Shown here: piece after piece, positions 6,180-38,460 of the stretch
Position numbering within the stretch: the first letter of the stretch is position 1
Layout: each line of letters begins with the position of its first letter
Assembly: GCA_964478755.1 (NCBI GenBank)
Contig: CAYZJP010000003.1
Span: forward strand, 7,477-71,476
Length of the DNA stretch: 64,000 nucleotides
From: an uncultured Klebsiella sp.
GTDB taxonomy: Bacteria > Verrucomicrobiota > Verrucomicrobiia > Limisphaerales > SXTU01
Direction of reading: 5' to 3'
Translations under genes and position numbers: made by a program
Notes under the pieces: model-generated
What the model was told of the DNA's origin: nothing
The model's input: only the letters and a program-made list of their open reading frames with translations
Database searches by the model: none

Positions 6180-6188
6180 TTCAAGAGG

Positions 6189-19258: not shown

Positions 19259-20929
19259 TCACTTGGAGCGGTGCATCTTGAAGCTGGTCGCGTGGGCTTT
19301 GGCCGGTTCCGGATTCCATTCCGGCAGGCTGGTCTTGATCGCGGCGGCGGGGGCGGCCAGGGAGAGCTGCTCCACCTGATGCATCATCGCGGAGAGGTTT
19401 ACGTTGGCCTTGGAGAGTTCGAACTGGGCTTTCTTCAACTCGGCTTCGAGTCCTTGCAAACGGGTTTTGAATACCACCAGCATCGCGAGGCCAAGAAACA
19501 AAATTGCCGCCGATATGATCATGCTGGTGATGGCGACCCAATTTGAGGACTCGCTGTTGCTGGAATAGGCAGGAGCGGGAACGGAATCCTCGCGTGCGCG
19601 CAAGTCCGGCTGTGGCTCGCGCATTCGCGGCGGCTCGGTGAACGAGCTGCCGGGATTTGTGTCCGCGCCGCCGGGCGGCAACGCAAAGAGGTCGCGCGCC
19701 GGAGCGGCGGGGATCGGCTCCTTGGCAGCCGGCGGAGCGGTGAACGGCGGCAGGCTCGGCTCCTTGGTCGCGGTCTCAGGTCCGGGATACTTGGCGGGCG
19801 GCATCGTGGCGGCGCTCGTCTCTTTCACCGGTGGCGGCAACACCGGCACGATGGGCTGCGGTTCTTTCATGCCCAGCGCCGGGGAAAAATTAGTAGTGGC
19901 GTCCGGCACGGGCGCGGTGAACGGCGACACCTTGCCGACGGTTGTGGGCGGAGGGAATGCGCCGGCTGATGTCTTCGGAGACACTTGTCCCGAGGCGGCC
20001 ATCGTCATGGGAGATTTGTCAGGCGTGATTGCGGCCGGCGGGGCGACGGGTGTGGTGGTGGCCGGGCTGCGACCGCCTTGCGCGAGATACTGCGTGGCGA
20101 GTTCGTGGCCTTGCGCCGCCGCCTTCTCTATCCACGCGCGTCCTTCGGTTGGGTTGGCAGCCGTGCCCTCACCCGTGAGCAACGCCCGCCCGTAATCAAA
20201 CTGCGCCGCCGCGAAATTTTGCTGGGCCGCCTTGCGAATCCACTTCGTGGCCGTCTCCAAATCCTGCTCGACGCCGTGCCCCAACTGGTAGAGCCGCCCC
20301 AGCAGAAACTGCGCGCGCGGATCCTCCTGATACGCCGCGCGCCGCAACCACGAGGCGGCCTCGGTGTAGTTGCGCTCGACGCCGTTGCCGTTCACGTAGG
20401 CCAGCCCCACGCTGCATTGCGAGCGCGCGTCGCCCTGCTCGGCGGCCTTGCGGAACCACTCGACCGCCTTCTTGCTGTCCTTGGGCACGCCTTCGCCCTT
20501 CAAGTAGCAGAGGGCGATGTTGTATTGCGCGTCCGGCAGACCTTGGGCGGCCGCCAACTCATACCATTTCACGGCCTCACGAAGATCGGCCGGCACGCCC
20601 TCGCCCTGGTCATACAGCGTGCCCAAGACATACTGGGCAAACGGATCGCGTTGGTCCGCCGCCAGCCGCACCCAGCGGACGCCTTCGACCAAATCCTTTT
20701 TGACGCCGTCGCCGCTGAGGTAGGCATTGGCCACGAGTCGTTGGGCGATGACATCACCTTTCTCGGCGGCGGCGCGCAGCTCAACGAAGGAGCGGATGGA
20801 CGGATTGGCACTCGGCAGCAACGGGGTGGCCGCCGCCGCAGTGAAATCGAGCAACAGTGTCGCCACCAGCGCGAGTCCGGGGCGGGCCAGCAGTTTTCCC
20901 AGTCGGAAAGGCTCGAAACACTTGCGCAT
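19259..20929 (-). CDS. Sel1-repeat (TPR-like) protein with Pro-rich linker, TM helix and C-terminal coiled coil
   Basis: At least six Sel1 units (AQ..LG..Y..G.GV..D...A..W...AA.QG). TM WVAITSMIISAAILFLGLAMLVVF. Signal-like N-terminus from the ATG at 20929. Confidence 0.8.
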   Translation of the reverse strand: MRKCFEPFRLGKLLARPGLALVATLLLDFTAAAATPLLPSANPSIRSFVELRAAAEKGDVIAQRLVANAYLSGDGVKKDLVEGVRWVRLAADQRDPFAQYVLGTLYDQGEGVPADLREAVKWYELAAAQGLPDAQYNIALCYLKGEGVPKDSKKAVEWFRKAAEQGDARSQCSVGLAYVNGNGVERNYTEAASWLRRAAYQEDPRAQFLLGRLYQLGHGVEQDLETATKWIRKAAQQNFAAAQFDYGRALLTGEGTAANPTEGRAWIEKAAAQGHELATQYLAQGGRSPATTTPVAPPAAITPDKSPMTMAASGQVSPKTSAGAFPPPTTVGKVSPFTAPVPDATTNFSPALGMKEPQPIVPVLPPPVKETSAATMPPAKYPGPETATKEPSLPPFTAPPAAKEPIPAAPARDLFALPPGGADTNPGSSFTEPPRMREPQPDLRAREDSVPAPAYSSNSESSNWVAITSMIISAAILFLGLAMLVVFKTRLQGLEAELKKAQFELSKANVNLSAMMHQVEQLSLAAPAAAIKTSLPEWNPEPAKAHATSFKMHRSK

Positions 20930-21060
20930 AAAACACCGTCGGCCCGCCCTCACACCTGCCGTGGAGAAAACTGCGGGCCAAGCGCGCGCATCGTGTGAGT
21001 CGTCCTCCGCAGTGTCAAGGTCGCGCTTGCCCGGCGCGCTCCGCACGCTACGCTCCCGCC

Positions 21061-23382
21061 ATGCGCTCCCGACTTGTTGTCCTGCTTGCCTTGGTTTCCC
21101 TCACTGCGATCCGCAGTTTTGCCGCCGCATCGTTGCCCGGCACACAGCCGCTCACGCGCGAAGGCGATTACTCCGAGCAGATGGTCGCCGGCATTCAGAA
21201 GTTTCTCCTGCGCGAGACGGACAATTCCATCGCCGCGCGCGCGCAGCTCTGGAAACGCGACCTGTCTTCGCCCGAAGCTTACGCGAAGTCCGTCGAGCCG
21301 AACCGCCAGCACCTCGCGCAAATCCTCGGCGCGGTGGACCCGCGCGTGCCGTTCAAGGCGCTGGAGTATGTCGCCAACACGCGCGATACGGCCGTCGTCG
21401 TGGAGACGTCGCAGTTCACCGTCTTTGCCGTGCGCTGGCCCGTGCTCGATGGGGTGACCGGCGAAGGTCTGTTGATCGAGCCAAAGTCCCCACCCCGCGC
21501 GCAAATCATTGCGCTGCCCGACGCCGATCAAACGCCCGAGCAACTCGCCGGCCTCGCACCCGGCACGCCCGCACGGGCGCAGTGGGCGCGCGCTCTCGCG
21601 GCGGCAGGCTGCCGCGTCGTCATCCCGACGTTGGTTGACCGACGTGACGAGTGGTCCGGCAACCCGCGCATCCGCTTCACGAACCAGCCGCACCGCGAAT
21701 GGATTTACCGCCAGGCCTTCATGCTAGGCCGCACGGTCATAGGCTACGAAGTGCAGAAAGTGCTGGCAGTCGTGGACTGGTTCACCAAGGAAAACACCGG
21801 GCACGGAGCGCGCCGTCCCATCGTGGTCGCTGGCCATGCGGAAGGCGGGCTGATCGCGCTCCATGCCGCCGCGTTGGACACACGCATCTCCGCCGCGTTG
21901 GTCAGCGGCTACTTCGACTCGCGGCAAGCGCTCTGGAAGGAGCCGATCTACCGCAACGTCTTTGGCCTGCTCCGTGAGTTCGGCGACGCAGAGCTCGCCA
22001 GCCTTGTCCATCCCCGCGCACTGGTCGTTGAACACAGCCAGGTGCCGACGCTTGCCGGCCCGCCCGCCGTGCGCACGGGCCGTTCGGGCGGCGCGGCTCC
22101 GGGCAGGTGGTCCACGCCGGACTTCACTTCGGTCGAGGCAGAAGTCGCTCGCGCCGGCAAACTCACCGGCAAGCCGCCGCTCTTCATCCACGGCAGCGAA
22201 GGCTCAACCACCGGGCCGGGATCCATCGCCGCGCTGGAAGACGCGCTCGCCGCCGTCGGCGTGAAGGTGCGCGTGGATTTCGCGCCGGACAAACTTCTCG
22301 GGGACGCCAGGAAAGACTTCTCCGCCGACGACCGCCAGCGCCGGCAAGTGAAGGAGCTGGAGAACTTCACCCAGAACTTGCTCCGCGTAGCGACCTACAT
22401 GAGGGACGAATCTTTTTGGGCCAAGGCCAAAGCGCCCAACGCCGCCGCGTGGGATACCGCACGCAAGCCGTGGCAGAGCAACTTCTGGCAGGAGGTCAAC
22501 GGGAAGTTCGCACCGGCCAGCCTGCCCGCGAACGCGCGCTCGAAGGAAATTCTCAACACCGACAAGCTGACGGGCTATGACGTGACGCTGGACGTTTGGC
22601 CCGACGTGTTCGCATGGGGAATTCTTTTGCTGCCCAAGGACCTGAAACCCGGCGAGCGCCGGCCGGTGGTCGTGTGCCAGCACGGCCTCGAAGGCGTGCC
22701 GATGGACACCGTGACGACCGACGAGAAATCCCGCGCGTGGCAGAGCTACAAGGGCTTCGCAACACGGCTGGCGGAACGCGGCTTCATCGTCTTTGCGCCG
22801 CACAACCCGTATCGTGGGCATGACGAATTCAGAAACATCCAGAGGCTCGCAAATCCGCTGGGCAAACATCTTTTCTCCGTCATCTTCGCGCAGCACGAGC
22901 GAATTTTGGAATGGCTCGGCGCGCAGCCGTTCGTGGACGCCAAGCGCATCGGCTTCTACGGCCTGAGCTACGGCGGCAAGTCCGCGATGCGCATCCCGGC
23001 GGCGCTGGACGGCTACTGCCTGAGCATTTGTTCGGCGGACTTCAACGAGTGGGTCTGGAAAAACGCGACCGTGGACTGGCGCGGCAGCTACCTGTTCACC
23101 GGCGAATACGAAATCTTTGAGTGGAACCTCGGCCACACGTTCAACTACGCCGAGATGGCCGCGCTCATCGCGCCGCGGCCCTTCATGGTCGAGCGCGGCC
23201 ACGACGACGGCGTGGGCATTGACGAGTGGGTGAACTTCGAGTTCGCGAAAATCCGCCGCTTCTACACCAAGCTCGGCATCGCCGACCGCACGGAGATCGA
23301 GCATTTCGACGGCCCGCACACCATCAACGGGCAAGGGACGTTTGACTTTCTCCACAAGCATCTGAACTGGCCGAAGCGGTGA
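21061..23382 (+). CDS. secreted alpha/beta-hydrolase family protein (dienelactone hydrolase / prolyl-oligopeptidase-like C-terminal domain)
   Basis: Signal peptide MRSRLVVLLALVSLTAIRSFAAA. Nucleophile elbow GLSYGGKS. ERGHDDG near the C-terminus. Confidence 0.65.
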   Translation: MRSRLVVLLALVSLTAIRSFAAASLPGTQPLTREGDYSEQMVAGIQKFLLRETDNSIAARAQLWKRDLSSPEAYAKSVEPNRQHLAQILGAVDPRVPFKALEYVANTRDTAVVVETSQFTVFAVRWPVLDGVTGEGLLIEPKSPPRAQIIALPDADQTPEQLAGLAPGTPARAQWARALAAAGCRVVIPTLVDRRDEWSGNPRIRFTNQPHREWIYRQAFMLGRTVIGYEVQKVLAVVDWFTKENTGHGARRPIVVAGHAEGGLIALHAAALDTRISAALVSGYFDSRQALWKEPIYRNVFGLLREFGDAELASLVHPRALVVEHSQVPTLAGPPAVRTGRSGGAAPGRWSTPDFTSVEAEVARAGKLTGKPPLFIHGSEGSTTGPGSIAALEDALAAVGVKVRVDFAPDKLLGDARKDFSADDRQRRQVKELENFTQNLLRVATYMRDESFWAKAKAPNAAAWDTARKPWQSNFWQEVNGKFAPASLPANARSKEILNTDKLTGYDVTLDVWPDVFAWGILLLPKDLKPGERRPVVVCQHGLEGVPMDTVTTDEKSRAWQSYKGFATRLAERGFIVFAPHNPYRGHDEFRNIQRLANPLGKHLFSVIFAQHERILEWLGAQPFVDAKRIGFYGLSYGGKSAMRIPAALDGYCLSICSADFNEWVWKNATVDWRGSYLFTGEYEIFEWNLGHTFNYAEMAALIAPRPFMVERGHDDGVGIDEWVNFEFAKIRRFYTKLGIADRTEIEHFDGPHTINGQGTFDFLHKHLNWPKR

Positions 23383-23645
23383 AGTGCCCGACTGTGAAAT
23401 CCCTTCACTTGTGGAAGGTCAGCGCACTGCTCTGGGCACTGGCCATCGAACGCCGAATCTGACGCTGGGTTCGCAACTCGAAACGACTGGCGGGGACTAC
23501 AATTTCAAGGCGATTTTCTTCGTGCAGAAATCGAGGGACAGCGGTTCAATGCTGCAAGTCACAAAGAACATTCGCCAGGCGGCGGTGTTTGAATGCGTGA
23601 ACAGGCACAGTTTGGCGGTCAAAAATTGCAAACACAGGAGAATCC

Positions 23646-24773
23646 ATGAAAACAAACGCTCGATGGGTGGTTGCGCTCGCGGCGGGCTCGGTTGCGCTCG
23701 CGGCGATCTTGGCGGGGTGTTCCGACGGGGCCGTGGACAGCGAGGCGGCCAGCAACCGGGAGTCATCCGAGGCGGTCGCGATGATGAAAAGCGAGGAGGC
23801 GCAGCGGCGCGCGGCCTCCGCGGCACGGGAGAAAGACCCGTTGTGGAAGCCGGCCACCAGTGAGGTGGGTCTGATCCAGGTGGGCGACAGCAAAAGGCCG
23901 GGTGCCCTGAAGAATTTCTGCCTGAATGCCGAGGGCAACATCCTGGCGTGCCTCGACAAGAGCATCCGGGTGCATTCGCCCAAGGGAGAATTGCTCAAGA
24001 CCCTGCCGCTGGAGATCAAGCCCGGGGCGATTGCCGTGGCAAAGGACGGCGCGATTTTTGTGGCGGGCGAAGGGCTGATGTTCAAGCTCGACGCCAGCGG
24101 AAAGGTGCTGGCGAAGGCGGAATCGCCGGTGGCCAAGGTGCCGGTGGTCATCACCAAGGAGATCGAGGAAATGCTCAAGCAATCGGGACGTTCCAGCAAG
24201 GCGGAGTGCGACCGCATGAAGACGAGTCTGGAACAGCGCCGGTCCGAGGTGAACGGGATGGCGGTGACGGAGCAGGACGTGTTCATGGTGGTTCCGTCGC
24301 CGAGTGACTTCTCCTTCCGCGTCTATCGCATGGACCATGAGCTGCAAAATCCGAAGCTCGTCGTCGACAAGCTCCGCGGCTGCTGCGGACAGATGGACCT
24401 CCAAGCTCACGAGGGGAAACTGTGGATTCCGCACAACGGCCGCCACGCCATCGAATCCCACGACCGTGACGGGAATGAACTCTCGAAGTTCGGCAAGGCC
24501 GGCAAGGTGAAGGCCAGTGATTTCGGTGGCTGCTGTGAGCCAAAGAGCCTGCGCGTGCTGCCCAACGGCGACATCCTCGCCGCCGAGTCCGGCCCGCCCA
24601 CCTGCATCAAGCGCTTCTCGGCGGACGGCAAATTCCTCGGCGTGGTCGCGGTGATCAACGAGTCGCACGGAGATTGCGTGCGCGTCACCGTGGAGATGAG
24701 CGCGGATGGAAGCCGGTATTACCTGATGGACACCAAGCGCGATGCCATCCACGTCTTCGGTGCGAAGGGGTGA
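23646..24773 (+). CDS. lipoprotein, NHL-like beta-propeller, with two vicinal-cysteine GCC motifs
   Basis: Good SD (aggaga) 6 nt before the ATG. Lipobox AILAGC. LRGCCGQMD and FGGCCEPKS motifs. Repetitive beta-strand pattern. Confidence 0.7.
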   Translation: MKTNARWVVALAAGSVALAAILAGCSDGAVDSEAASNRESSEAVAMMKSEEAQRRAASAAREKDPLWKPATSEVGLIQVGDSKRPGALKNFCLNAEGNILACLDKSIRVHSPKGELLKTLPLEIKPGAIAVAKDGAIFVAGEGLMFKLDASGKVLAKAESPVAKVPVVITKEIEEMLKQSGRSSKAECDRMKTSLEQRRSEVNGMAVTEQDVFMVVPSPSDFSFRVYRMDHELQNPKLVVDKLRGCCGQMDLQAHEGKLWIPHNGRHAIESHDRDGNELSKFGKAGKVKASDFGGCCEPKSLRVLPNGDILAAESGPPTCIKRFSADGKFLGVVAVINESHGDCVRVTVEMSADGSRYYLMDTKRDAIHVFGAKG

Positions 24774-24803
24774 GCTGAATCGGGTCGGCTCGCTGGAGTG
24801 CCC

Positions 24804-26852
24804 ATGAGCTACTGCAACCACCGTGGAATTGGCCGGCTCGCCTTCCTGTGGCTGGCGTTGTTCGGCGTCAGCGGCGCATTTGCTGCCTCGCCCAAGAAAA
24901 CGCCGGAGCCGGTCGTGCTGGTGGTGCTGGATCCGCTCGCCAAGGAGCTGGCTTGCGCGTGCGTGCCGGGCTACGGCCAGCGCGATTACCGCAAACTCGC
25001 CGCGCGTCTTGAAGTGGCCCTCAAGCAACGCGTCGGCATCGAGTTCTCCGATGACCTCGCCGAGACGCTCACGGTGATCGGCCCCGGGCGGGAAGTGGTC
25101 GTCATCGGCGACCAATCACTCGTCGCCGACGGCGCGAAACGGGTGGAGTTGAAATGTCATCCGATCTGCGAGCTGACCGGCATTGATGGCAACGCAACCA
25201 TCACGGGTTTGTTTGTGGCTCGTGCCAGCGATCCGGCGAAGTCGTTGCAGGAGATCGGCGGGCGGAGGATTTTGTTCGGCGTTCCAGAAACCGATGCCAA
25301 GCACGCCGCCGCCCTCGCCGCGCTGCGCGCCGCTGGCGTCGAGCCGCCCGCCAAGCCGGAGAAACGCACGCCCTACAGCGACGCCGCACTGGACGTGCTG
25401 GACAGTTCTGCGTCGCCGCCGCCGGTGGCGGTGATCCCCAGTTACGCGCTGCGCCTGCTCGAAGGCTGCGGCAGCGTCGCGCCCGGTGCGCTGAAGGTGA
25501 TCGGGCGGACGGAGGCCGTGCCGTTCATCACGGTGTTCGTGGGTGACCGCGTCGCGGCAGACAAGGAACAAATCATTCTCAAGTCGCTGCTTGACCTCAA
25601 AGGCGACGAAAAACTGCTGAGGCTCATGGAGAGCAAGGATGGCTTCCGACCGGTGAATGCCGTCAAGCCGGCCGGTGGAAAAGCCAGCGCCGAAGCGGAC
25701 TGGCCGGACTGGCGCGGGCCGGGCCGAGATGCCCACGTGCCACGGTTGCCGGCGCGCTTGCCGGAGACAACCAGGCTCGTCTGGAAAAAGGCCGCCATGC
25801 CCGGCGGCTTGGCAGGTTTGAGTGTGAGCACGGGCAGATTGATCCTCGCCGAGCGCGACTTCGGTGACGAATTCGACGTGTATCGCTGCCTCAGCGCGGA
25901 CACGGGTGAGCTGCTCTGGCGGGCGGAATTCCCCGCGCGCGGAAAGCTCGACTATGGCACGTCCCCGCGAGCCACGCCGGTCATTCACCAGGGCCGGGCA
26001 TATCTGCTCGGGGCCTTCGGCGAGCTGCGCTGCGTCAATGTTGCGGACGGCAAGCTGCTCTGGAAGCGGAGCCTGCCGCGCGACTTTCAGGCGGAGTTGC
26101 CCACGTGGGGAATGTGCGCCACGCCGCTGATCGTGGACGATTTGCTCGTCGTCAATCCCGGCGGTGCCGGTGCCGCGCTGGCCGCGCTGGATTGCGTCAC
26201 CGGCAAAACCCGCTGGACCACGCCGGGACGCCCCGCTGCCTACTCGGCTTTTATTTGCGGTGAATTCGGCGGGCAGCGGCAGATCGTGGGCTACGACCGG
26301 CTTTCGCTCGGTGGCTGGGACGTGAAGACGGGCAAGCGCCTCTGGCAACTCGTGCCGCCGACGGAAGGCGACTTCAATGTGCCCACGCCCGTCGTCGTCG
26401 CCGGCGGCCTCCTCGTCGCGACCGAGAACAACGGGACGCGTCTTTACCATTTCGATGCCGCTGGCCGGATCATTTCCAAGCCGGTGGCGGTGTTTGCGGA
26501 ACTCGCCCCGGACACGGCGACACCGGTGGTGACGAATGGCCGCGTCTTCGGGGTCCACCGTGGTCTGCGTTGCCTCGACATCCAGCAGGGGTTGAAGCCC
26601 GTCTGGCATCGCGAAGAAAACGCGCTTGGCGATCACGCCACGTTGATCGCGGATGCGGAGCGTGTGCTGGTGATGACTCACGGCGGCGAACTCATCTTGT
26701 TGGATGGCAGGACGGATGTGTGCACCATCATTTCACGGCTGCGCGTGTTTGAGGAGGACGCTGAAGTGTATTCGCATCCGGCGCTGGTGGGCACGCGGCT
26801 CTACGTGCGCGGCGGTTCCAGTGTGGTTTGCGTGGATTTGGGGAAAGATTGA
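24804..26852 (+). CDS. fusion of a PhnD-like periplasmic binding domain and a PQQ-like (BamB-type) beta-propeller
   Basis: Signal peptide LAFLWLALFGVSGAFA. VVLVVLDPLAKELACACVPGYGQRDY and ILFGVPETDAKH resemble PhnD/SsuA-type binding proteins. WPDWRGPGRDAHV followed by repeated G.L.W... propeller blades. An alternative GTG start is at 24798. Confidence 0.65.
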   Translation: MSYCNHRGIGRLAFLWLALFGVSGAFAASPKKTPEPVVLVVLDPLAKELACACVPGYGQRDYRKLAARLEVALKQRVGIEFSDDLAETLTVIGPGREVVVIGDQSLVADGAKRVELKCHPICELTGIDGNATITGLFVARASDPAKSLQEIGGRRILFGVPETDAKHAAALAALRAAGVEPPAKPEKRTPYSDAALDVLDSSASPPPVAVIPSYALRLLEGCGSVAPGALKVIGRTEAVPFITVFVGDRVAADKEQIILKSLLDLKGDEKLLRLMESKDGFRPVNAVKPAGGKASAEADWPDWRGPGRDAHVPRLPARLPETTRLVWKKAAMPGGLAGLSVSTGRLILAERDFGDEFDVYRCLSADTGELLWRAEFPARGKLDYGTSPRATPVIHQGRAYLLGAFGELRCVNVADGKLLWKRSLPRDFQAELPTWGMCATPLIVDDLLVVNPGGAGAALAALDCVTGKTRWTTPGRPAAYSAFICGEFGGQRQIVGYDRLSLGGWDVKTGKRLWQLVPPTEGDFNVPTPVVVAGGLLVATENNGTRLYHFDAAGRIISKPVAVFAELAPDTATPVVTNGRVFGVHRGLRCLDIQQGLKPVWHREENALGDHATLIADAERVLVMTHGGELILLDGRTDVCTIISRLRVFEEDAEVYSHPALVGTRLYVRGGSSVVCVDLGKD

Positions 26853-26872
26853 GCGTCGTTGTTCCGGCTGTT

Positions 26873-27604
26873 ATGAAGTTCAGATCCATCCTCGTCATCG
26901 GCCTCCTCGCCCTGGCATGCGCGGGATGTTCGAGCGTTTCCCAGTCGGGATCCCATGCCAAACTGCTTCCCGCGCTTGGTCCCTATGTCAGGGAAGTCGC
27001 CAACGAACTGAACACGATCCCTCCCGAGCGCAAGGTCGTGCTGGGCGAGATCGCCGCGACTGTGGCCGCGCGCCTTGAGAGCGGAGCGGATGCAAAGCTG
27101 ACTTTCATCTGCACCCATAATTCCCGGCGCAGTCACATGTCGCAGGTCTGGCTCCAAACCGCCGCCTATCACTACGGCCTCGACAAGGTCCGCGCCTATT
27201 CGGGAGGCACCCAGGCGACCGCCTGCAACTGCCGGACGGTGACGGCGATGCGCACGGCGGGCTTTGCCATTCAGGACGCCACGACCGGAGACAATCCGCT
27301 TTATCTGGTCCGGTATGCGGAGGACCGCCCGCCGATCCGCGCCTATTCCAAGCTCTACAATGCCGATGCCAATCCGAAGCGCGATTTCATTGCCTTGATG
27401 ACGTGCAGTGTGGCCGACAAGTCATGTCCCGTCGTGCAGGGAGCCATCGCCCGGTATGCGATCCATTACGCTGATCCCCGGCTTTGCGATGACACGCCCA
27501 CCGAAACCGCCGCCTACAACGAGCGCTGCCGGGAAATCGCGCGGGAGATGTTCTATATCATGTCGGAGGTTCGCCGACAGGTGGATGCAAACACGCGGCC
27601 TTGA
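26873..27604 (+). CDS. LMW protein-tyrosine-phosphatase / ArsC-type (CX5R) protein with signal or lipoprotein N-terminus
   Basis: P-loop LTFICTHNSRRSHMSQVW (C-X5-R-S). Downstream MTCSVADKSCP and YADP. N-terminus MKFRSILVIGLLALACAGCSS. Confidence 0.75.
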   Translation: MKFRSILVIGLLALACAGCSSVSQSGSHAKLLPALGPYVREVANELNTIPPERKVVLGEIAATVAARLESGADAKLTFICTHNSRRSHMSQVWLQTAAYHYGLDKVRAYSGGTQATACNCRTVTAMRTAGFAIQDATTGDNPLYLVRYAEDRPPIRAYSKLYNADANPKRDFIALMTCSVADKSCPVVQGAIARYAIHYADPRLCDDTPTETAAYNERCREIAREMFYIMSEVRRQVDANTRP

Positions 27605-27832
27605 CGAGATTTCAACAGGACCGTGGCGTGGGACAGAGATATAATAGTAACAGCGTCATCGTCGTTGCCGCTGGAGTCAGACGGGCTGGCTGAAGCAGGC
27701 CGGGCGCAATCCGTCCGATGGCTTTCACCGGGTAAGGGATATAATTGCGGGCAACTCCCTTTGTCGGGAGCGCCAGATTCCCCGCACATGTCTGCCGCGC
27801 GCGGGCTGGATTCTCGGAACCAGGCAAGTTGG

Positions 27833-29311
27833 TTATCTTCCCCCGTGTCGCAGCAGCTCCCTCATCTGGGCGACCACCTCGGCCCGCTTCGGATCGTCGG
27901 CGAGATTCTTCATTTCCTTCGGATCGTTGTCGTGATCGTAAAGTTCAGCACCCTGACGGCCTTCGTCCCACTCGGTGTAGCGCCACCGTTCCGTGCGAAC
28001 ACTGCGGCCCATGAAGCCGCGTTTGCCCTTGTTCTGCGGTGCGTCAAAAGTCCCGACTGCGAGTCCGCGTGTGACTTGTGAATAGGCGGGCAAGTCCCAT
28101 TTCGCGTTCGGATTTTCCAGCAGCGGACGCAAACTCGTGCCTTGCGTCTTTGCATCCGGCGGCACGCCGCAAAGGTCCGCGAGCGTCCGGTGCAAATCCA
28201 CGAGTTCGACCGTGCGCGGGCACACCTTGCCGTTGGACTTGCTGCCGGGCACCGAAATGATGAGCGGCACGCGGGCGGATTCCTCGAAAATGCTCATCTT
28301 TTGCCAAAGCCCCTTCTCACCGAGATGGTAGCCGTGGTCGCTGTGGAAAAGGATGATCGTGTTGTCCGCGAGTTTGAGCCGCTCGATGGCGTCGAGCAGC
28401 ACACCGACCTGCGCGTCCATAAACGTCGTGGCCGCGTGATACGCTGAGATCGCCTTGCGGCGCAAATCGTCGCTCATCAGCGTCTCTTCCTTGCGTGTGA
28501 TCATGAGTGGCGCGGCGGGAAAAAGCTCCGCGAGATTGGCCGGCACCACGGGCAGCCTGATCTGCTCCGGCGGATAAATCGCGAAGTATTTCTTCGGCGA
28601 AACGTAAGGCGTGTGCGGACGGAAGAATCCGACGGCGAGGTAGAATGGCTTCCCGTTGCGGGAGCTTTCCTCGAGCAGCTTCACGGCTTCGGCCGCGATC
28701 TTGCCGTCGGTCTGATCGGCGTCCGCGCCCTCGGCGGCGAGCCAGCTCAAGGTCGCGCCGAGTTGTTTCAACTCCGTGGCCTTCGCAGTGACAGTGTGCG
28801 TCTTGTCCTCGGCGAGCTGGACGCGTTCGATCATCGTGAAGTCGTCCATGTCACGGCCCTTGGGATTCACCACGCGCTGCCACGAATTCTTGTCGTCAAA
28901 CCCGTCCGTGCCGATCTGCGCGGGCACGGCGTAATGGTAAATCTTCCCGACGCGGGTCACGGAGTAGCCGGCCTTTTGAAACGTCTGCGGCATCGAAACC
29001 GCGTCCGGCATGGCCGTGCGGAAATGCGTTTGATTTTCGTAGGCTTTGGTTGTGTCGGGCCGCAGCCCGGTCATGAACGAGCAGCGCGACGGATTGCAGA
29101 GCGGGAACTGGCAGTAGGCGCGTTCGAACGTCACGCCGCGCGCGGCGAGCCGGTCAATGTTGGGGGACTTCACGACCGGATCGCCGTAGCAGCCGAGCCG
29201 CGCGCAGAGATCGTCGGAGATGATGTGGAGGACGTTGAGGCGTTCGGCGGACGAGGCTCTCGTCGTGATGGCGAACAGGACGCACACGACCACGATTGGC
29301 AAATGCTTCAT
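27833..29311 (-). CDS. formylglycine-dependent sulfatase (iduronate-2-sulfatase-like)
   Basis: Signal peptide. SDDLCARLGCYG. Sulfatase signature CNPSRCSFMTG. FHSDHGYHLGE. Confidence 0.88.
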   Translation of the reverse strand: MKHLPIVVVCVLFAITTRASSAERLNVLHIISDDLCARLGCYGDPVVKSPNIDRLAARGVTFERAYCQFPLCNPSRCSFMTGLRPDTTKAYENQTHFRTAMPDAVSMPQTFQKAGYSVTRVGKIYHYAVPAQIGTDGFDDKNSWQRVVNPKGRDMDDFTMIERVQLAEDKTHTVTAKATELKQLGATLSWLAAEGADADQTDGKIAAEAVKLLEESSRNGKPFYLAVGFFRPHTPYVSPKKYFAIYPPEQIRLPVVPANLAELFPAAPLMITRKEETLMSDDLRRKAISAYHAATTFMDAQVGVLLDAIERLKLADNTIILFHSDHGYHLGEKGLWQKMSIFEESARVPLIISVPGSKSNGKVCPRTVELVDLHRTLADLCGVPPDAKTQGTSLRPLLENPNAKWDLPAYSQVTRGLAVGTFDAPQNKGKRGFMGRSVRTERWRYTEWDEGRQGAELYDHDNDPKEMKNLADDPKRAEVVAQMRELLRHGGR

Positions 29312-29754: not shown

Positions 29755-31134
29755 ATGCTCCACATCGGTAACGAATACATCCCGCTCTGCTCCGGCACGA
29801 GCCGCCGCAGCTTCCTCCAAGTTGGCGCAGCAGCGATGGCCGGCATATCGCTGGCGAATCTCTACAAGCTCCAGGCCGCCGGCGCGGTGGACGAGAAGAA
29901 AGCCAAGATTCGTAACTGCATCACGCTTTTCCTCGTCGGCTCGCCCGGCCAGCTCGACACGTGGGACATGAAGCCCGACGCGCCCGAGGATGTGCGCGGC
30001 AAGTTCAAGCCCATCTCCACCAGCGTGCCCGGCGTGCAGATTTGCGAGCACTTCCCGCGCATGGCGAAGGTCATGGACAAGGTCGCGCTCATCCGCAGCC
30101 TGCACTACAACACCGGCGCGTCGCACGAGAACGGCCAGCGCTGGATGATGACCGGCCACGATTTCAACGAGGCGAACAAGCAGCCTTACATGGGTTCCGT
30201 GATCTCGCGCGTTTACGGGCCGAAGGGCGATCTGCCCGCGTCCATCGTGTTGCCCGTGCCCATCGGCAACACCGGCACGTCCACGCCGCACGGGCAGGAG
30301 AGCGCCTTCCTCGGCAGCGCCCACGCGCCATTTTTCCTGGGCAACGACCCGGCGCGCGCGGACTTCAAGGTCGCCGACCTCGAACCGCCCAAGGGCCAGA
30401 CGGAGTTCCGCGTCGAGGCGCGGCGCAAGTTGCTCAAGGAAGTGGACGAGTTGCAGCGGCAGGTTGAGACGAGCAGCACACTGGAGCGCGACACGGCTTA
30501 CGCACGCGCCTTCAACATGCTGACGAATCCGGAGACGAAGAAAGCCTTCGACCTGAATGAAGAACCCGCGAAGCTTCGCGACCGTTACGGACGAAACACC
30601 TTCGGGCAAAGCTGCCTCATGGCGCGCCGGCTCATCGAACGCGGCTCGCGCTTTGTCACGGTGAACCAGTTCGACACCGTGTTCGGCATCTCGTGCTGGG
30701 ATATGCACGCCGACGGCGGCAGCCTGAACAACACCTACGCCGACTACGAACACGTGCTCTGTCCGCAGTTCGACCTCGCATTCACCGCGCTGCTCGAAGA
30801 CCTCCAGTCGCGTGGCCTGCTTGAAGAAACCGTCATCGCCGTCATCAGCGAGTTCGGCCGCACGCCCAAACTCAACCCGCGCGGCGGGCGCGATCACTAT
30901 CCCTCCGCGTGGACGAACTTTCTCGCCGGCGGTCCCATCCGCGGCGGACGCGTCATCGGCTCCACCGACAAAATTGGTGCCGCGCCACACGACCGTCCAG
31001 TGGAGCCGCCGCAAGTCGTCGCGTCCATCTATCAGGCGATGGGCATTGATTTGGAAACCACGATGCTCCCCGGCCCCGGCGGAAGACCCATCCGCTTCAT
31101 CGAGGCCGAGCCAATTCGGGAACTGTTCGCGTGA
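29755..31134 (+). CDS. DUF1501 domain protein (sulfatase-fold, Tat signal)
   Basis: Twin-arginine region TSRRSFLQVGAAAMAG. DTWDMKPDAP, GQRWMMTGH, CWDMHADGG, SEFGRTPKLN, GRDHYP. Confidence 0.88.
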   Translation: MLHIGNEYIPLCSGTSRRSFLQVGAAAMAGISLANLYKLQAAGAVDEKKAKIRNCITLFLVGSPGQLDTWDMKPDAPEDVRGKFKPISTSVPGVQICEHFPRMAKVMDKVALIRSLHYNTGASHENGQRWMMTGHDFNEANKQPYMGSVISRVYGPKGDLPASIVLPVPIGNTGTSTPHGQESAFLGSAHAPFFLGNDPARADFKVADLEPPKGQTEFRVEARRKLLKEVDELQRQVETSSTLERDTAYARAFNMLTNPETKKAFDLNEEPAKLRDRYGRNTFGQSCLMARRLIERGSRFVTVNQFDTVFGISCWDMHADGGSLNNTYADYEHVLCPQFDLAFTALLEDLQSRGLLEETVIAVISEFGRTPKLNPRGGRDHYPSAWTNFLAGGPIRGGRVIGSTDKIGAAPHDRPVEPPQVVASIYQAMGIDLETTMLPGPGGRPIRFIEAEPIRELFA

Positions 31135-31153
31135 TTCTGAGCAAGAAAGCCTT

Positions 31154-31915
31154 GTGAAAACTCCATTCAAAATCGAGCGTGTTTTCAACACTACAGATGC
31201 AATTGGAATGCTACTCAACTTGAGAGCAGACGGCTATTGGTCTTTTCGGGGGCATAGGAATCACCGGTGGGGAGTCGGACCTCATCATATGCCGAAGTTG
31301 AAGGACGAGACCGAAAAAGAACTACACATCATCTTAGAGACGCTACGCCTGCAGTTTGTTAAACGCTGTAAGGAATTCAACGAATTCGAGTTGGATGAAC
31401 ACGACTACTGGCAGACTGTGTTCTACGCTCAACACTACGGTTTAAAGACTAGGTTGCTTGATTGGACAAGTAATCCGCTTGTCGCCCTCTACTTCGCAGT
31501 TGAAAATGTGTTGAACACAGAGAACGACGAAAACACTTGTGGATGCGTCTGGGCAATCAAAGTCCCAGAGTCCAAATGGTTCAATTTCTCCTCACTACCA
31601 GGCTATGGAGGAAGAGACGAGGAGAAGTGGCGGCTTGCTAGTTGGATAATGATTAACCCTCCACTAATTACAGATAGGCTGATAAGGCAGAGTGGCAAGT
31701 TTTCATACCATCCATCACGAGATGACAATGACATTTCAGTTCTGCCACGGGCCTGCGGTGAACAAATGATTAAAGTCATTATTGGTGACGAGTCGAACAA
31801 TCCGGCGGCAAGAATACGACAGGAATTGGGCATTATGAACGTCCATCACGCCTCACTCTTTCCTGACCCGGGCGGAGTGGCGCAGTTCATGAACAAACAA
31901 TGGCCTCAGTTATGA
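31154..31915 (+). CDS. FRG-domain protein, on a low-GC single-gene island
   Basis: YWSFRGH, FYAQHYGLKTRLLDWTSNPLVALYFAV and RLIRQSGKFSY match the FRG domain pattern as I remember it. AT-rich codon usage (AAA, GAA, TTA, AGA) unlike the flanks. The start is GTG at 31154 or ATG at 31208. The upstream part of the track ORF (30812-31134) is an out-of-frame overlap with the DUF1501 gene. Confidence 0.75.
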   Translation: MKTPFKIERVFNTTDAIGMLLNLRADGYWSFRGHRNHRWGVGPHHMPKLKDETEKELHIILETLRLQFVKRCKEFNEFELDEHDYWQTVFYAQHYGLKTRLLDWTSNPLVALYFAVENVLNTENDENTCGCVWAIKVPESKWFNFSSLPGYGGRDEEKWRLASWIMINPPLITDRLIRQSGKFSYHPSRDDNDISVLPRACGEQMIKVIIGDESNNPAARIRQELGIMNVHHASLFPDPGGVAQFMNKQWPQL

Positions 31916-31991
31916 GGGGCAAGCACTCACTACAGCAACTGCAATTACGTTCAAGTTACAGCCGTAGTGTTTTCCTACAGGTGCGCTGAAT

Positions 31992-34500: not shown

Positions 34501-36948
34501 ATGAAACGCTTTCTGATCTTTGCGTGTGCCTTTTCTGCCTCGTTCAGCCTCTTGGCCGCGCCGGCAGCGGACCCGGTCACGGAGGTGCGCGTCACGCCAT
34601 CGTCGCTGACGCTCGTCAACGCACAGCGACCGCACTCGCTCGTCGTAATGGCGCGCACGAAGGGCGGCTACGACGTGGACCTCACCGGCAAGGCGACCTT
34701 CCGCAGCAGCAGTGAGAAAGTGGCGCGCGTTGATTCGGCCGGTTGGGTGCGGCCAATCGCGAACGGCAGCACAACCATCACCGTGAGCGCCGGCGGGCGC
34801 ACGGTAAAGGTGAGCGTGACCGTGCAATTGCCCGCCGAGCCGGTGGCGATGAGTTTCCGGCAGGACGTGATGCCGGTGTTGTCCAAAGGCGGTTGCAACG
34901 CGGGCGCGTGCCACGGCTATTCGCTCGGAAAAAACGGCTTCAAGCTGACGTTGCGCGGCGCGGACGCGGAGAAGGATTATCCAGCGCTGACGGATGAGTT
35001 CATGGAGCGCCGCATCAACCGTCACAATCCCGCCGCGAGCCTGCTGCTGCTCAAGGCGACCGGCGACCTGCCGCACGAGGGCGGCGTGCGTTTCGACCGC
35101 GGCAGCCTGATGGATGAAACACTGCGCCGCTGGATCACCGAAGGCGCAAAGGACGATGCGCCATCGCTGCCGACGCTGGTGTCGGTCACGATTTATCCAG
35201 AGAAGGTCGTCGCGCTGCCGCGCGCTCGGCAGCAGTTCCAGCTTGTCGCAAAATACAGCGACGGCTCCACGCGCGACGTGTCCCGCACCGGCATCTTCAA
35301 CGTGAACACCGAGCGCGTCGCGAAGGTGGATGACGTTGGTTTAGTGACAGCAACCGATCTCGGCGAGACGGCGATTGTTGCGCGCTACGAAGGAATTTTC
35401 GCCGTGGCAAATTTCATCGTGCTGCCACCGAGCAAGAGTTTTCAGCCGACACCCGTGCCGGAAGACAACTTGGTTGACCGGAATGTCATTTCCAAGTTGA
35501 ACGACCTTCGCATCAAACCCTCCGAGCTGGCCGACGACAAGCGCTTCCTCCGCCGCGTGTCCGTGGACCTCATCGGTGTGCAGCCCAAGCCGGAGGAAGT
35601 GCTCGCGTTCGTCGCCGACACGAGCGCGGACAAGCGCGAAAAGGTGGTGGATGCGTTGATGAAGCGAGCCGAGTTTGTGGACTGGTGGTCATTGAAGTGG
35701 GGCGACCTGTTGCAGAACTCCCGCAACACGATGAGTGACCCGGCGGTGTATGCGTTCCGCGAATGGATTCGCGCGGCCATTGCGCGCAACCTGCCGCTGG
35801 ACCAGTTTGCCCGCGAGATTCTCACGGCGCGCGGCAGTTTTGTGGACAATCCCGCCGCCGGCTACTTCGCCGTCAGCAAGGACACCGACGACACAATGCA
35901 GCGCGCGACGCAGGTCTTCGCCGGCGTGCGGATGCTTTGCGCGCGGTGTCATCCGCACCCGTTCGAGCACTGGACGCAGGCTGACTACTACGGCGTCCAC
36001 AGCTTCTTCAATCAAGTGACGACGAAGGCCGATCCGCGCCAGACCGGTGTGCAGAATGCGAAGACGATTTTGGTGAACTTTTCCGCCGGCAACTCGACCA
36101 ATCCCCGCACCGGCAAGCCGCAGCCTCCGCGTTATCTCGGCGGTGGCGAACCGAAGCTGGATACGGGCATTGACCGCCGCGCCGATTACGCGCAATGGCT
36201 GACTTCGCCGGAAAACCCGCACTTCGTGCGCAGCCTCGCCAATCGCATCTGGAGCTACTTCTTCCATCGCGGCATCATTGACCCCGTGGACGACTTGCGT
36301 TCGACCAGCCCGCCCATCAACCCGGCGCTGCTCGACGCGCTGACGAAGGATTTCGTGGAGCACCAGTTCGACATGCGCCATCTCATGCGCGTCATCGTCA
36401 CATCGCGCACGTATCAGCGCAGCTCGACGCCGAACGAAACCAACGGCCACGACGACGCGAACTTCTCGCACGCCATCCCGCGCCGCCTGCCGGCCGAGGC
36501 GATGCTCGACTCACTCGTGCAGGCGACCGGCGTGAAGGAAAACTTCGGCGGTGCTCCGGCGGGCTTCAGCGCCGCGCAACTGCCGGACGGAAATGTGCAG
36601 AGCGATTTCCTGAAACTCTTCGGCAAGCCCTCGCGCATGGAGGCGTGCGAGTGCGAGCGCGACCTCGGCGCGAACATGCTGCAGGCACTGCACTTCATCA
36701 ACGGCAAGTCCATCCTCGACCGCGTCACAAGCGGCAGCGGGCGCCCCGCGCTGCTGCTCGCGCAGAAGCCTGGCGATGACAGGCTCATCGAGCAGCTTTA
36801 CCTCTGGTCGCTCGCGCGCAAGCCGACCTCTGCCGAGATCGCGCTGGCAAAGAAGTTCATCGCCTCTTACGCAGACAAGCGCGCCGAGGCCGCGCAGGAT
36901 TTTATGTGGAGCCTGCTCAACAGCCGCGATTTCACGATGCTCCACTGA
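34501..36948 (+). CDS. Big_2 + DUF1549 (PSCyt2) + DUF1553 (PSD1) protein
   Basis: FRQDVMPVLSKGGCNAGACHG, CARCHPHPFEHWTQADYY, LRRVSVDLIGVQP, and a C-terminal MLQALHFINGKS / WSLLNSRDF. Confidence 0.88.
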   Translation: MKRFLIFACAFSASFSLLAAPAADPVTEVRVTPSSLTLVNAQRPHSLVVMARTKGGYDVDLTGKATFRSSSEKVARVDSAGWVRPIANGSTTITVSAGGRTVKVSVTVQLPAEPVAMSFRQDVMPVLSKGGCNAGACHGYSLGKNGFKLTLRGADAEKDYPALTDEFMERRINRHNPAASLLLLKATGDLPHEGGVRFDRGSLMDETLRRWITEGAKDDAPSLPTLVSVTIYPEKVVALPRARQQFQLVAKYSDGSTRDVSRTGIFNVNTERVAKVDDVGLVTATDLGETAIVARYEGIFAVANFIVLPPSKSFQPTPVPEDNLVDRNVISKLNDLRIKPSELADDKRFLRRVSVDLIGVQPKPEEVLAFVADTSADKREKVVDALMKRAEFVDWWSLKWGDLLQNSRNTMSDPAVYAFREWIRAAIARNLPLDQFAREILTARGSFVDNPAAGYFAVSKDTDDTMQRATQVFAGVRMLCARCHPHPFEHWTQADYYGVHSFFNQVTTKADPRQTGVQNAKTILVNFSAGNSTNPRTGKPQPPRYLGGGEPKLDTGIDRRADYAQWLTSPENPHFVRSLANRIWSYFFHRGIIDPVDDLRSTSPPINPALLDALTKDFVEHQFDMRHLMRVIVTSRTYQRSSTPNETNGHDDANFSHAIPRRLPAEAMLDSLVQATGVKENFGGAPAGFSAAQLPDGNVQSDFLKLFGKPSRMEACECERDLGANMLQALHFINGKSILDRVTSGSGRPALLLAQKPGDDRLIEQLYLWSLARKPTSAEIALAKKFIASYADKRAEAAQDFMWSLLNSRDFTMLH

Positions 36949-36957
36949 GCGCGCAGA

Positions 36958-37105
36958 TTTTAGCCACGGATGAAACACGGATTAAACACGGAGAGAATAC
37001 AAGCTAAACGCGGAGATGCGTTCAGTCATGCTCGCATTCGATTCTCCGGCGTGCCGACCTCACCTTTCATCCGTGTTTCGTCAGTGTTTCATCCGTGGCT
37101 AAAAA
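36958..37105. repeat. family B inverted-repeat element filling the intergenic gap
   Basis: tagccacggatgaaacacggattaaacacgg - about 80 nt - ccgtgtttcgtcagtgtttcatccgtggctaaaaatc. The arms are reverse complements. Confidence 0.85.
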
Positions 37106-38460
37106 TCATTTTTGCTTTTCTCCTCGGCAGCCTTTCAGCCAATGCCACAGATGTGAGCTACCAGCGCGACGTGTGGCCGATTTTTCGGCGGCACTGCGTC
37201 GGCTGTCACAGCGAACAGAAGGTCAAGGGCGGTTTGCGACTCGACGACGTGAGCGCGCTGCGGAAGGGCGGCAAGACCGGCCCGCTCTTCGTCGCGGGCA
37301 AGCCGGACAAGAGCTTGCTCATCAAACAAATCAGCGGCGAAAAACCCGAAATGCCTGACAACGAGCCGCCGCTCTCCGCCGCTAAGGTGAAGCTGCTGCG
37401 CGACTGGGTCGTGCAGGGCGCAAAGATTGATGCCGCGCCAAAGCCCGGCGGTCCGCCGGTGGTCATCCCCGCGATTTACGCCACCGCGCCCGCCGTGACG
37501 AGCGTGACCATCAGCCCGGATGGCAAGCTCGCCACCGCGGCGTGCCGCAGCGAGGTCGTGCTGTTCAATGTGGACGATGACAGCGCGCCGCGCCGTTTGC
37601 CGACGGACTTCGATCTCGTCACGCACGTTGAGTTCAGCCCGGATGGGAAGCGATTGGCCGTCGCGGGCGGTTCGCCGCAGCAGTTTGGTGGAGTGATTTT
37701 CTTCGATGCGGAAGGACGCCGCCAGTCCTCGCGGCGCATTGGCAACGACACGTTGTTCAAGGGCAACTTCGCGCCCGATGGCCAGGCCATCGCGCTCGGC
37801 ACGGCCACGGGCGCGGTGGTCATCGTGCCTGTGGACACGAACGCAGCGCCGAAGTCCATCGAGTTGCACAGCGACTGGGTGATGGCCGTGGCTTACACCA
37901 TGGACGGCAAACAGCTCGTCAGTGGCAGCCGCGACAAGACGACGAAGTTGAGCAGCGTCGAGAGCCTGAAGCTGCTGCGCTCGGTGGATCAGTCCACTGA
38001 CATCATCAACGCCGTCGCCGCTGATGGGACAAACGCCATCTCTGCCGGCAACGCGCGCACAGTGACTGGCTTCGATCTCAAGCTCGCGCTCACCGTTGTG
38101 GAAGTCACCGGCTCCGGCAACGGCGCGCAGCCCGTCAACAACCGCGATCAATACGTCCGCAACTTCGAGGCGCAGGCCGAGCCGGTGATGGCGCTCGCCA
38201 CGAGCGGCGACCGCAAGCTGCTCGCCGTCGCCACGCGCGGTGCCGAGGTGCGGATTTACCAGACCGACAATCGGCAGCGGAAAACTTCCATCACAAACGC
38301 GCCTGCGCCCGTTCTCGGCATCGCGCTCAGCCGTGATGGCACGCGCCTCATTCTTGGCAGCAAGAGCGGGCAGGTGCAGATTTACGACGTGGGTTCGGCC
38401 AAGCTTGTGAAGTCGCTCGTGCCGGTTCCCACACAACCGATCAGGGCTGCTTCAAGGTAG
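36970..38460 (+). CDS. planctomycete-type cytochrome c domain (PSCyt1) + WD40 beta-propeller protein
   Basis: WPIFRRHCVGCHSEQKVKGGLRLD (CxxCH), PEMPDNEPPLS, then WD40-like blades. The ATG at 36970 is in the repeat's left arm. GTG at 37084 (MFHPWLKIIFAFLLGSLSANA) is an alternative start that gives a normal signal peptide. Confidence 0.8.
   Translation: MKHGLNTERIQAKRGDAFSHARIRFSGVPTSPFIRVSSVFHPWLKIIFAFLLGSLSANATDVSYQRDVWPIFRRHCVGCHSEQKVKGGLRLDDVSALRKGGKTGPLFVAGKPDKSLLIKQISGEKPEMPDNEPPLSAAKVKLLRDWVVQGAKIDAAPKPGGPPVVIPAIYATAPAVTSVTISPDGKLATAACRSEVVLFNVDDDSAPRRLPTDFDLVTHVEFSPDGKRLAVAGGSPQQFGGVIFFDAEGRRQSSRRIGNDTLFKGNFAPDGQAIALGTATGAVVIVPVDTNAAPKSIELHSDWVMAVAYTMDGKQLVSGSRDKTTKLSSVESLKLLRSVDQSTDIINAVAADGTNAISAGNARTVTGFDLKLALTVVEVTGSGNGAQPVNNRDQYVRNFEAQAEPVMALATSGDRKLLAVATRGAEVRIYQTDNRQRKTSITNAPAPVLGIALSRDGTRLILGSKSGQVQIYDVGSAKLVKSLVPVPTQPIRAASR

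Follow-up and report, generated by a model that had tools for sequence, protein, structure and literature searches.

Three co-directional genes, here called G1, G2 and G3, occupy positions 23646–27604 of the window, by which we mean the whole 64,000-nt stretch analyzed (positions 7,477 to 71,476 of contig CAYZJP010000003.1, assembly GCA_964478755.1, filed as an uncultured Klebsiella sp. and placed by GTDB in the Limisphaerales of the Verrucomicrobiota). G1 encodes a predicted secreted propeller protein with pairs of adjacent cysteines, G2 a fusion, likewise predicted to be secreted, of a PhnD-fold domain with a BamB-like propeller, and G3 an ArsC-like protein starting with what appears to be a lipoprotein signal. 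An earlier note on this DNA had read the cluster as an exported oxyanion or metalloid handling module, and its description of the layout was borne out. The gaps are short (24–30 nt between G1 and G2, 20 nt between G2 and G3), G1 is preceded by a Shine–Dalgarno sequence (Table 1) and by an AT-richer leader of 263 nt (23383–23645; GC ≈0.55–0.58 compared to ≈0.63 in the flanks), and all of the motifs that had been quoted (AILAGC, LRGCCGQMD, FGGCCEPKS, LACACV and FICTHNSRRS) were found in the translations. For G2 the start at ATG 24804 is favoured because the NCBI-called product (P0390) has 682 aa. For G3 we use ATG 26873 (MKFRS...), since the NCBI product (P0001, 243 aa) and the MK... starts of the orthologues agree on it, and the TTG at 26828 was rejected on the same grounds.

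Gene order and distribution

A contig search with a single-protein query reached 13 close loci. Starting from G3, there were 12 complete loci with enough upstream sequence, and all 12 had the order G1–G2–G3 between unrelated flanks. The trio was also found in the cultured Pedosphaera parvula Ellin514 (contig ABOX02000014.1). An independent metagenome scan for G1, using its two CC motifs, yielded 80 loci; as these were chosen by one CC pattern, the other motifs alone constitute independent evidence of motif conservation. Here G2 followed G1 in each of the 54 loci in which 400 nt or more remained, and G3 followed G1–G2 in 17 of the 23 loci having at least 2.4 kb of room, so that G1–G2 is the invariant core and G3 a frequent third member. 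The co-occurrence of the three families that the earlier note had set as a test was thus seen from both ends of the cluster. G1–G2–G3 looks like one co-transcribed, exported operon typical of the Pedosphaerales/Limisphaerales (Verrucomicrobiota). A chance adjacency of unrelated genes, or a set of mis-called reading frames, is effectively refuted by this synteny, with order and spacing kept across dozens of contigs with unrelated flanks and with protein identities of 60–84%; the GC content at third codon positions in the cluster (0.73–0.84) is moreover that typical of real genes within the window.

One locus was of a different kind. In a metagenome-assembled genome of Chthoniobacter sp. (L017, JAQGOK010000130.1, 5162–6114), abutted fragments of G1 (residues 192–354), G2 (3–91) and G3 (206–243) were seen, so that the operon is present there as a copy that has decayed or was misassembled. 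Searching the PLSDB plasmids by tblastn with G1 and with the PhnD domain of G2 gave no match. The database labels carried by genes of the cluster are 'protein-tyrosine-phosphatase', 'arsenate reductase', 'BamB' and 'hypothetical'. No literature describing the cluster was found, in line with the earlier note, which could match it to no described system, and literature searches on periplasmic arsenate reductase, the THNSRRS motif, DUF6428, and Pedosphaera together with arsenic gave nothing relevant.

G3, a predicted ArsC-like lipoprotein

The Pfam model LMWPc (PF01451) matched G3 at 26.1 bits (gathering cutoff 23.2), covering only the N-terminal half of the domain, and the best NCBIfam matches were thioredoxin-type ArsC models, at scores far under their cutoffs. 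With phmmer against the PDB sequences, the ArsC proteins of B. subtilis and S. aureus were the best matches, and C80, R86-S87, C178, C185 and D201 of G3 were aligned with C10, R16-S17, C82, C89 and D105 of B. subtilis ArsC (1jl3). In pI258 and B. subtilis ArsC, Cys10 is the nucleophile, Arg16 the P-loop arginine, Cys82 and Cys89 the relay of the disulfide cascade, and Asp105 the general acid. G3 is hence similar to the ArsC of S. aureus pI258 and B. subtilis (1jl3, 1ljl) in fold family, in the CX5R-S P-loop, in the Asp-Pro acid and in having both relay cysteines at an identical spacing of seven residues. It differs from them in a core that is only ≈25–30% identical, in a P-loop reading THNSRR instead of TGNSCR, in missing the curated cutoffs, and in an N-terminal helical extension of ≈55 aa downstream of the signal and lipobox. 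These comparisons place G3 in a divergent sister clade of the thioredoxin-type ArsC enzymes, which have the low-molecular-weight protein tyrosine phosphatase (LMW-PTP) fold.

The earlier note had remarked on a CX5R P-loop combined with a signal- or lipoprotein-like start in G3, and both proved to be conserved among orthologues. An N-terminal hydrophobic segment was present in 109 of 109 close orthologues with an intact N-terminus, and a lipobox of the C-A-G-C-S type in 103 of the 109; export was here called from such N-terminal sequence features and not from the output of a signal-peptide predictor. G3, and not G1, is by these features the probable consistent lipoprotein of the cluster. Given its lipoprotein signal, cytoplasmic thioredoxin and NADPH should not be usable by G3, which as predicted would fall outside the cytoplasmic location and thioredoxin/NADPH recycling by which ArsC is defined. 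No literature on an exported ArsC-type enzyme, or on the THNSRRS clade, was found.

When 1.84 billion representatives were scanned in full with HMMER, 1,532 clusters of the G3 family were obtained, 465 of them at E ≤ 1e-30, and conservation was counted in an alignment of the best 150 of these 1,532 representatives, clustered at 50% identity. C80, R85, S87, S110 and G112 were found in all 150 and N83 and R86 in 149, with slightly lower counts for C178 and P202 (147 each), C185 (146) and D201 (142). About 80 of the 150 were ≈205 aa long and had no N-terminal hydrophobic segment, and 42 had a signal-peptide or anchor-like N-terminus; export signals, seen in several phyla, occur on roughly one in three of the family's representative clusters. 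Judged by nearest neighbours the two classes are mixed with each other, and none of the core positions tells them apart; exported and cytoplasmic members therefore presumably share their chemistry.

In Bacteroidota and Planctomycetota the cytoplasmic relatives of G3 appear, from their gene neighbourhoods, to serve as the reductase gene within ars operons. The order is arsR-arsD-arsA followed by a G3-like gene (202 aa, without signal) in a Planctomycetaceae metagenome-assembled genome (L016), arsR-DUF6428-'protein-tyrosine-phosphatase'-ACR3 in the Empedobacter plasmid p1681-tetX (L018), and arsR-PTP-PTP-ACR3, with tandem G3-family genes annotated as protein tyrosine phosphatases (PTP), in the Chondrinema litorale plasmid NZ_CP111055.1 (L020, 4986–6328). 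In this tandem the first product is cytoplasmic, with 206 aa, and the second (5612–6328) has 238 aa and a signal peptide, starting MKIKMLFSIIFVLLLNMSNTIQAQ; the pair is a natural test case for the role of exported ArsC-like proteins. The ars-operon genes labelled as protein tyrosine phosphatase in Bacteroidota and Planctomycetota (Empedobacter, Chondrinema) belong to the clade of G3, with 38–47% identity, and share with it the N-terminal extension, the CTHNSRRS P-loop and the C-x6-CP relay. Unlike G3, which is exported and paired with G1 and G2 instead of with ArsR and ACR3, they are mostly ≈205 aa long, cytoplasmic and embedded in ars operons. Another relative (P0242), 57% identical to G3 and with a signal-like N-terminus, lies among genes for an ArsR-type regulator, an ArsM-like methyltransferase, a MIP channel and a radical-SAM protein (L021). 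Fusions of G3-family domains were seen with ArsA (P0351), ArsR (P0338), GNAT (P0264), an RsmD-like methyltransferase (P0288) and DinB_2 (P0334). The arsenic or metalloid lead of the earlier note was strengthened by these ars-operon contexts, by the ArsA and ArsR fusions and by the catalytic residues of the family, the function itself staying inferred.

Some further members deserve mention in their own right. The surroundings of P0242 (L021, 4555–9154; JGI 3300022664 contig Ga0247854_1000109) constitute an arsenic island in which the radical-SAM protein carries a Zn_ribbon_HMPTM domain, and which possibly makes organoarsenicals. In P0254 (L027, 7001–7777), an exported G3-like lipoprotein, a linker with a CC...CC pattern (KAACCDSTKTKGCCHGSD) lies between the lipobox and the catalytic domain and seems, from its sequence, to be a cis analogue of the vicinal Cys pairs in G1. 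Eight additional exported G3-like representatives had mixed neighbourhoods that were mostly uninformative.

G1, a predicted secreted propeller with cysteine pairs

All of the G1 homologues found (n = 588) are unnamed, and the best 120 of them are 64–84% identical to it. No Pfam or NCBIfam family scored above its cutoff with G1, with only weak propeller hints from SGL and Mala_s_1. The AlphaFold2 model (mean confidence, pLDDT, 78.7) shows a six-bladed propeller, a helix at its N-terminus and a helical hairpin as an insertion, and its best PDB matches were the NHL domains of Mei-P26, Brat, Thin and TRIM71 (TM-score, TMt, 0.69–0.72; probability 1.0), which give no functional clue. As modelled, G1 would thus be a secreted NHL-like six-bladed β-propeller. 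In a 20-sequence alignment both of its vicinal pairs, C246-C247 (LRGCCGQMD) and C296-C297 (DFGGCCEPK), were invariant, as were C92, C320 (PPTC), C344 (DCVRV) and H263/N264/R266/H267 (PHNxRH motif). Among the 120 orthologues GGCCEP was found in all and GCCGQM in 116, and the two cysteine motifs singled out in the earlier note are hence well conserved. Its view of G1 as a lipoprotein, from AILAGC, did not hold: the Cys of this motif varies among orthologues, a Sec-type signal peptide being what is kept, and G1 was rejected as a conserved lipoprotein.

Adjacent Cys-Cys pairs serve as ligands for soft metals and metalloids in ArsD, in ArsR and at the C-terminus of MerA, all cytoplasmic proteins. 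By analogy only, the vicinal cysteines of G1 may bind As(III); G1, being an NHL propeller, has no sequence or fold relation to any of the three.

G2, a PhnD-fold domain fused to a BamB-like propeller

The homologues of G2 (n = 579) are labelled 'BamB', 'PQQ-binding-like beta-propeller' or 'ABC-type phosphate/phosphonate ... substrate-binding protein'. Pfam recognized both halves, with Phosphonate-bd (PF12974) at 59.9 bits (E = 3e-16; cutoff 27) over residues 61–287 and PQQ_2 (PF13360) at 95.7 bits (E = 4e-27) over residues 361–555 and beyond. The fusion described in the earlier note is therefore present, but its propeller is BamB-like and not that of a quinoprotein dehydrogenase. Invariant among orthologues (682-aa numbering) were DPLAKELACAC...GQRDYRKL, with C51 and C53, and EGCGS, with C222, and several propeller cysteines were likewise invariant. 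In the AlphaFold2 model (pLDDT 77.9) the CAC loop (residues 49–52) had values below 50 and the inter-domain linker (286–309) was of low confidence.

Searching the PDB with a profile of the N-terminal domain, only Prochlorococcus-type PhnD1 (5jvb, E = 0.006) and PtxB were found to be related. In the HMMER alignment to PhnD1 (5jvb), of modest E-value, 'sTDYSS' was opposed by 'SDDLAE' in G2 and 'GDQASTSSH' by 'GLAETDEKK'. With the Tyr and the S-T-S-S loop of PhnD so replaced, the canonical oxyanion pocket is probably not retained, and the loss of these anion-binding residues makes the oxyanion-binding character earlier given to this domain doubtful; G2 as a functional phosphonate binder was rejected. 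Neither in the window nor in any orthologous locus do ABC permease or ATPase genes lie beside G2.

These features bear on whether the cluster acts instead as a periplasmic phosphatase or in phosphorus scavenging, with G3 as an LMW-PTP-type phosphoesterase having a structural C178–C185 disulfide and the PhnD-like domain of G2 binding the released phosphorus compound. Such a role would agree with the LMWPc fold of G3, with the PhnD family membership of the G2 domain, and with the finding that some exported homologues adjoin a PPK, PHO4 transporter or Metallophos gene; pI258 ArsC, furthermore, retains phosphatase activity. However, G2 has neither the Tyr nor the S-T-S-S loop with which PhnD1 and PtxB bind their anions, and ABC permease and ATPase genes are missing from its neighbourhood. 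The relay cysteines are kept invariantly whether a member is cytoplasmic or exported, and the G3 family has its ars-operon contexts and fusions. We consider this role improbable.

A parallel to the G2 domain may be AioX, ArxX and ArrX, PhnD-relative periplasmic proteins that sense arsenic oxyanions; AioX has recruited Cys106 for arsenite, within a pocket comprising Tyr88, Cys106, Tyr131, Ser161, Ser163, His192 and Asp210 (PMC5908839). G2 shares with these proteins a PhnD-fold domain with recruited cysteines. In AioX, however, the anion pocket of Tyr, Ser and His is retained and the protein acts together with a sensor kinase and a regulator, whereas G2 lacks those residues, has three different invariant Cys and a propeller fusion, and has no kinase or regulator neighbour. 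No AioX match to G2 was obtained when the PDB was searched with the profile (E ≤ 10).

For the C-terminal half of G2, Foldseek gave BamB as the best match (3prw, E = 2e-20, TMt ≈0.74), and almost all of the top 30 for G2 were BamB (TMt 0.68–0.76), with tetrathionate hydrolase and quinoprotein dehydrogenases lower down. An eight-bladed PQQ_2-type propeller is thus common to BamB and G2. BamB has no substrate-binding-protein domain, its conserved residues differ, and it is a lipoprotein, which G2 mostly is not, a lipobox-like motif being found in 29 of 109 G2 orthologues. The BamB equivalog models were missed by far (TIGR03300, 33.9 versus 285.2 bits; NF008351, 30.9 versus 423 bits), and G2 was rejected as an orthologous BamB. 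It was also rejected as a true pyrroloquinoline quinone (PQQ) quinoprotein, because it scored 23.8 versus 480 bits with the PQQ-dehydrogenase model TIGR03075 and its propeller of ≈370 aa is BamB-sized.

A function in envelope biogenesis or as a scaffold, where G2 would be a paralogue of BamB that has gained a domain, G1 its partner propeller and G3 an unrelated passenger, would explain why Foldseek ranks BamB so consistently, why JGI annotations name orthologues BamB and why G1–G2 stand alone in some lineages. This we regard as highly improbable, considering equivalog scores of 31–34 bits against cutoffs of 285–423, the absence of a lipobox from most G2 orthologues, a substrate-binding domain and conserved Cys cluster that BamB does not have, and the tight 20-nt G2–G3 junction kept in 17 of 23 plus 12 of 12 loci.

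Upstream region

When the upstream regions of 11 orthologous loci were aligned, the aACTTTCTTCGTGCaGAAA block was the sole strongly conserved stretch, ≈130 nt 5′ of the G1 ATG, and it precedes G1 only. This block, ATTTTCTTCGTGCAGAAA in the window, is a candidate promoter or operator judging from its conservation, with a poor fit to the sigma-70 consensus; a scan for sigma-70 promoters and intrinsic terminators gave none above shuffled expectation. A small conserved hairpin in the 5′ untranslated region, AACATTCGCCAGGCGGCGGTGTT, had a weak predicted energy in RNAalifold (−1.99 kcal/mol) and is of uncertain significance. Scanning 23300–27900 against Rfam gave no family, with only a chance match to an internal ribosome entry site (E = 0.7). 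No conserved regulator gene was found nearby among the loci inspected.

Other features of the window

The coordinates of the features are collected in Table 1. Flanking genes that are signatures of the Planctomycetes–Verrucomicrobia–Chlamydiae (PVC) group were found at 29755–31134 (DUF1501), 34501–36948 (DUF1549/DUF1553, i.e. PSCyt2/PSD1, with Big_2) and 36970–38460 (a fusion of PSCyt1 cytochrome c with a WD40 propeller). Directly after the DUF1501 gene, a low-GC island at 31100–31950 (GC ≈0.47 versus ≈0.63) encodes an FRG-domain protein (PF08867, E = 5e-19) and is possibly a horizontally acquired insert.

Table 1. Positions of genes, domains, motifs and upstream elements in the window
Feature	Position (nt)	Strand	Remark
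Conserved upstream element ATTTTCTTCGTGCAGAAA (consensus aACTTTCTTCGTGCaGAAA)	23513–23530	+	Alignment of upstream regions of 11 orthologous loci; putative promoter/operator
TCTAAT/TTCAAT-like (TAAT-like) box	23545–23550	+	Downstream of the ATTTTCTTCGTGCAGAAA element
Small conserved 5′ UTR hairpin AACATTCGCCAGGCGGCGGTGTT	23567–23589	+	RNAalifold: 8 pairs, 4 with compensatory changes
Shine–Dalgarno AGGAG	23636–23640	+	Read from sequence; 5 nt ahead of G1 ATG; GGAG kept in orthologous loci
G1	23646–24773	+	375 aa; from the open reading frame listing
G1 C246-C247 codons	24381–24386	+	LRGCCGQMD
G1 C296-C297 codons	24531–24536	+	DFGGCCEPK
G2	24804–26852	+	682 aa from ATG 24804; alternative GTG 24798 gives 684 aa
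G2 LACAC Cys codons	24954–24956, 24960–24962	+	
G2 EGCGS Cys codon	25467–25469	+	
G2 PhnD-fold domain	about 24978–25658	+	
G2 BamB-like eight-bladed propeller	about 25878–26807	+	Joined via disordered linker
G3	26873–27604	+	243 aa from ATG 26873; reading frame listed as 26828–27604
G3 predicted signal and lipobox MKFRSILVIGLLALACAGC	26873–26929	+	
G3 P-loop C80-T-H-N-S-R-R-S87	27110–27133	+	
G3 putative relay cysteines C178, C185	27404–27406, 27425–27427	+	
G3 putative acid D201	27473–27475	+	
Sel1-repeat protein	19259–21046	−	
Sulfatase	27833–29311	−	

Discussion

The cluster looks like an undescribed periplasmic module for handling of arsenic or soft metals, conserved in soil Verrucomicrobia. 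The reading that we tentatively favour is periplasmic arsenate reduction by G3, combined with thiol-based capture or relay by G1 and G2. In such a scheme, exported G3 would bind arsenate outside the cytoplasm, at its P-loop with Cys80 and Arg86, and would free arsenite through a Cys80 to Cys178 to Cys185 disulfide cascade, as in the pI258 and B. subtilis enzymes. G1 and G2 would be an obligate secreted pair acting as thiol partners of G3, with G2 providing a Venus-flytrap (PhnD-fold) domain whose oxyanion ligands may have been replaced by invariant cysteines and which is tethered to a BamB-like scaffold propeller. The pair might capture arsenite or another soft metalloid, and/or re-reduce the Cys178–Cys185 disulfide of G3 to the dithiol; the net effect would be that arsenate is removed ahead of its entry through phosphate transporters. 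The parts of this scheme are not equally firm. We infer that G3 reduces arsenate outside the cytoplasm from its conserved residues together with the ars-operon contexts of its relatives, while arsenite capture and/or disulfide recycling by G1 and G2 is speculative.

Several observations weigh against this scheme. With the curated ArsC models G3 scores 36.2 versus 174.3 bits (TIGR02691) and 37.4 versus 215 bits (NF010053). In none of the loci was an ars regulator, an efflux pump or a thioredoxin- or DsbD-type reductant found within the cluster or close to it. In an oxidising periplasm C178–C185 could be a permanent structural disulfide, and the cysteines of G1 and G2 may also be structural disulfides in that compartment. 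Six of the 23 metagenome loci with room for a third gene (L045, L095, L096, L097, L103 and L105) have G1–G2 followed by convergent genes, with no G3 downstream, and a core role of G1–G2 is therefore not strictly dependent on G3. Finally, the other exported G3-like genes mostly stand by themselves in surroundings unrelated to arsenic, and some of them neighbour PPK, PHO4 transporter, Metallophos or ArnT-like PMT_2 genes.

Part of this evidence would suit the same architecture acting on other thiophilic periplasmic species (Sb, Se or Te oxyanions, Cu(I), Hg(II) or polysulfide), or as a general thiol–disulfide relay in which G3 is a client or component. Invariant CC, CxC and single Cys in two secreted proteins, the existence of G1–G2 without G3, and the lack of ars genes nearby are all compatible with such a function, as are the Redoxin and multicopper oxidase genes that lie downstream in one locus (L002) and the occurrence of tetrathionate hydrolase in the list of structures resembling the G2 propeller. 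On the other hand G3, the sole functionally anchored component, comes from a family tied specifically to ars operons and to ArsA and ArsR fusions, and the Redoxin and copper oxidase neighbours are not kept in other loci. We consider this alternative rather unlikely. Divergent G1–G2 pairs without G3 were also seen to retain the CC motifs and EGCG.

Returning to arsenate reduction by G3, all characterised ArsC-type arsenate reductases are to our knowledge cytoplasmic and dependent on thioredoxin or glutaredoxin, and the only periplasmic arsenate reduction that we know of is that of the respiratory molybdoenzyme ArrAB. It is somewhat doubtful that the cluster is the first extracytoplasmic ArsC-type system, i.e. 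a lipoprotein reductase recycled by, or passing arsenite to, two new secreted cysteine-cluster proteins. What is new here is an ArsC-like enzyme that is exported and accompanied by two cysteine-cluster proteins, new as well, and there is a real possibility that the G1–G2 pair is categorically new.

If arsenate is indeed the substrate, exported ArsC-like enzymes would form a branch of arsenic resistance that has gone unrecognised and is 'pre-emptive', in that arsenate is stopped before its uptake by phosphate transporters. In the abundant soil Verrucomicrobia the arsenic cycle would then gain a compartment new to it, and possibly also a new relay for electrons or ligands. Counts of arsenic genes in soil metagenomes would also be affected, as the genes concerned are now labelled 'protein-tyrosine-phosphatase', 'BamB' or 'hypothetical'. 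Because the cluster is present in the cultured P. parvula Ellin514, the hypothesis is directly testable. Should the substrate turn out not to be arsenic, G1–G2 would still constitute a conserved and wholly uncharacterised pair of secreted cysteine-cluster proteins.

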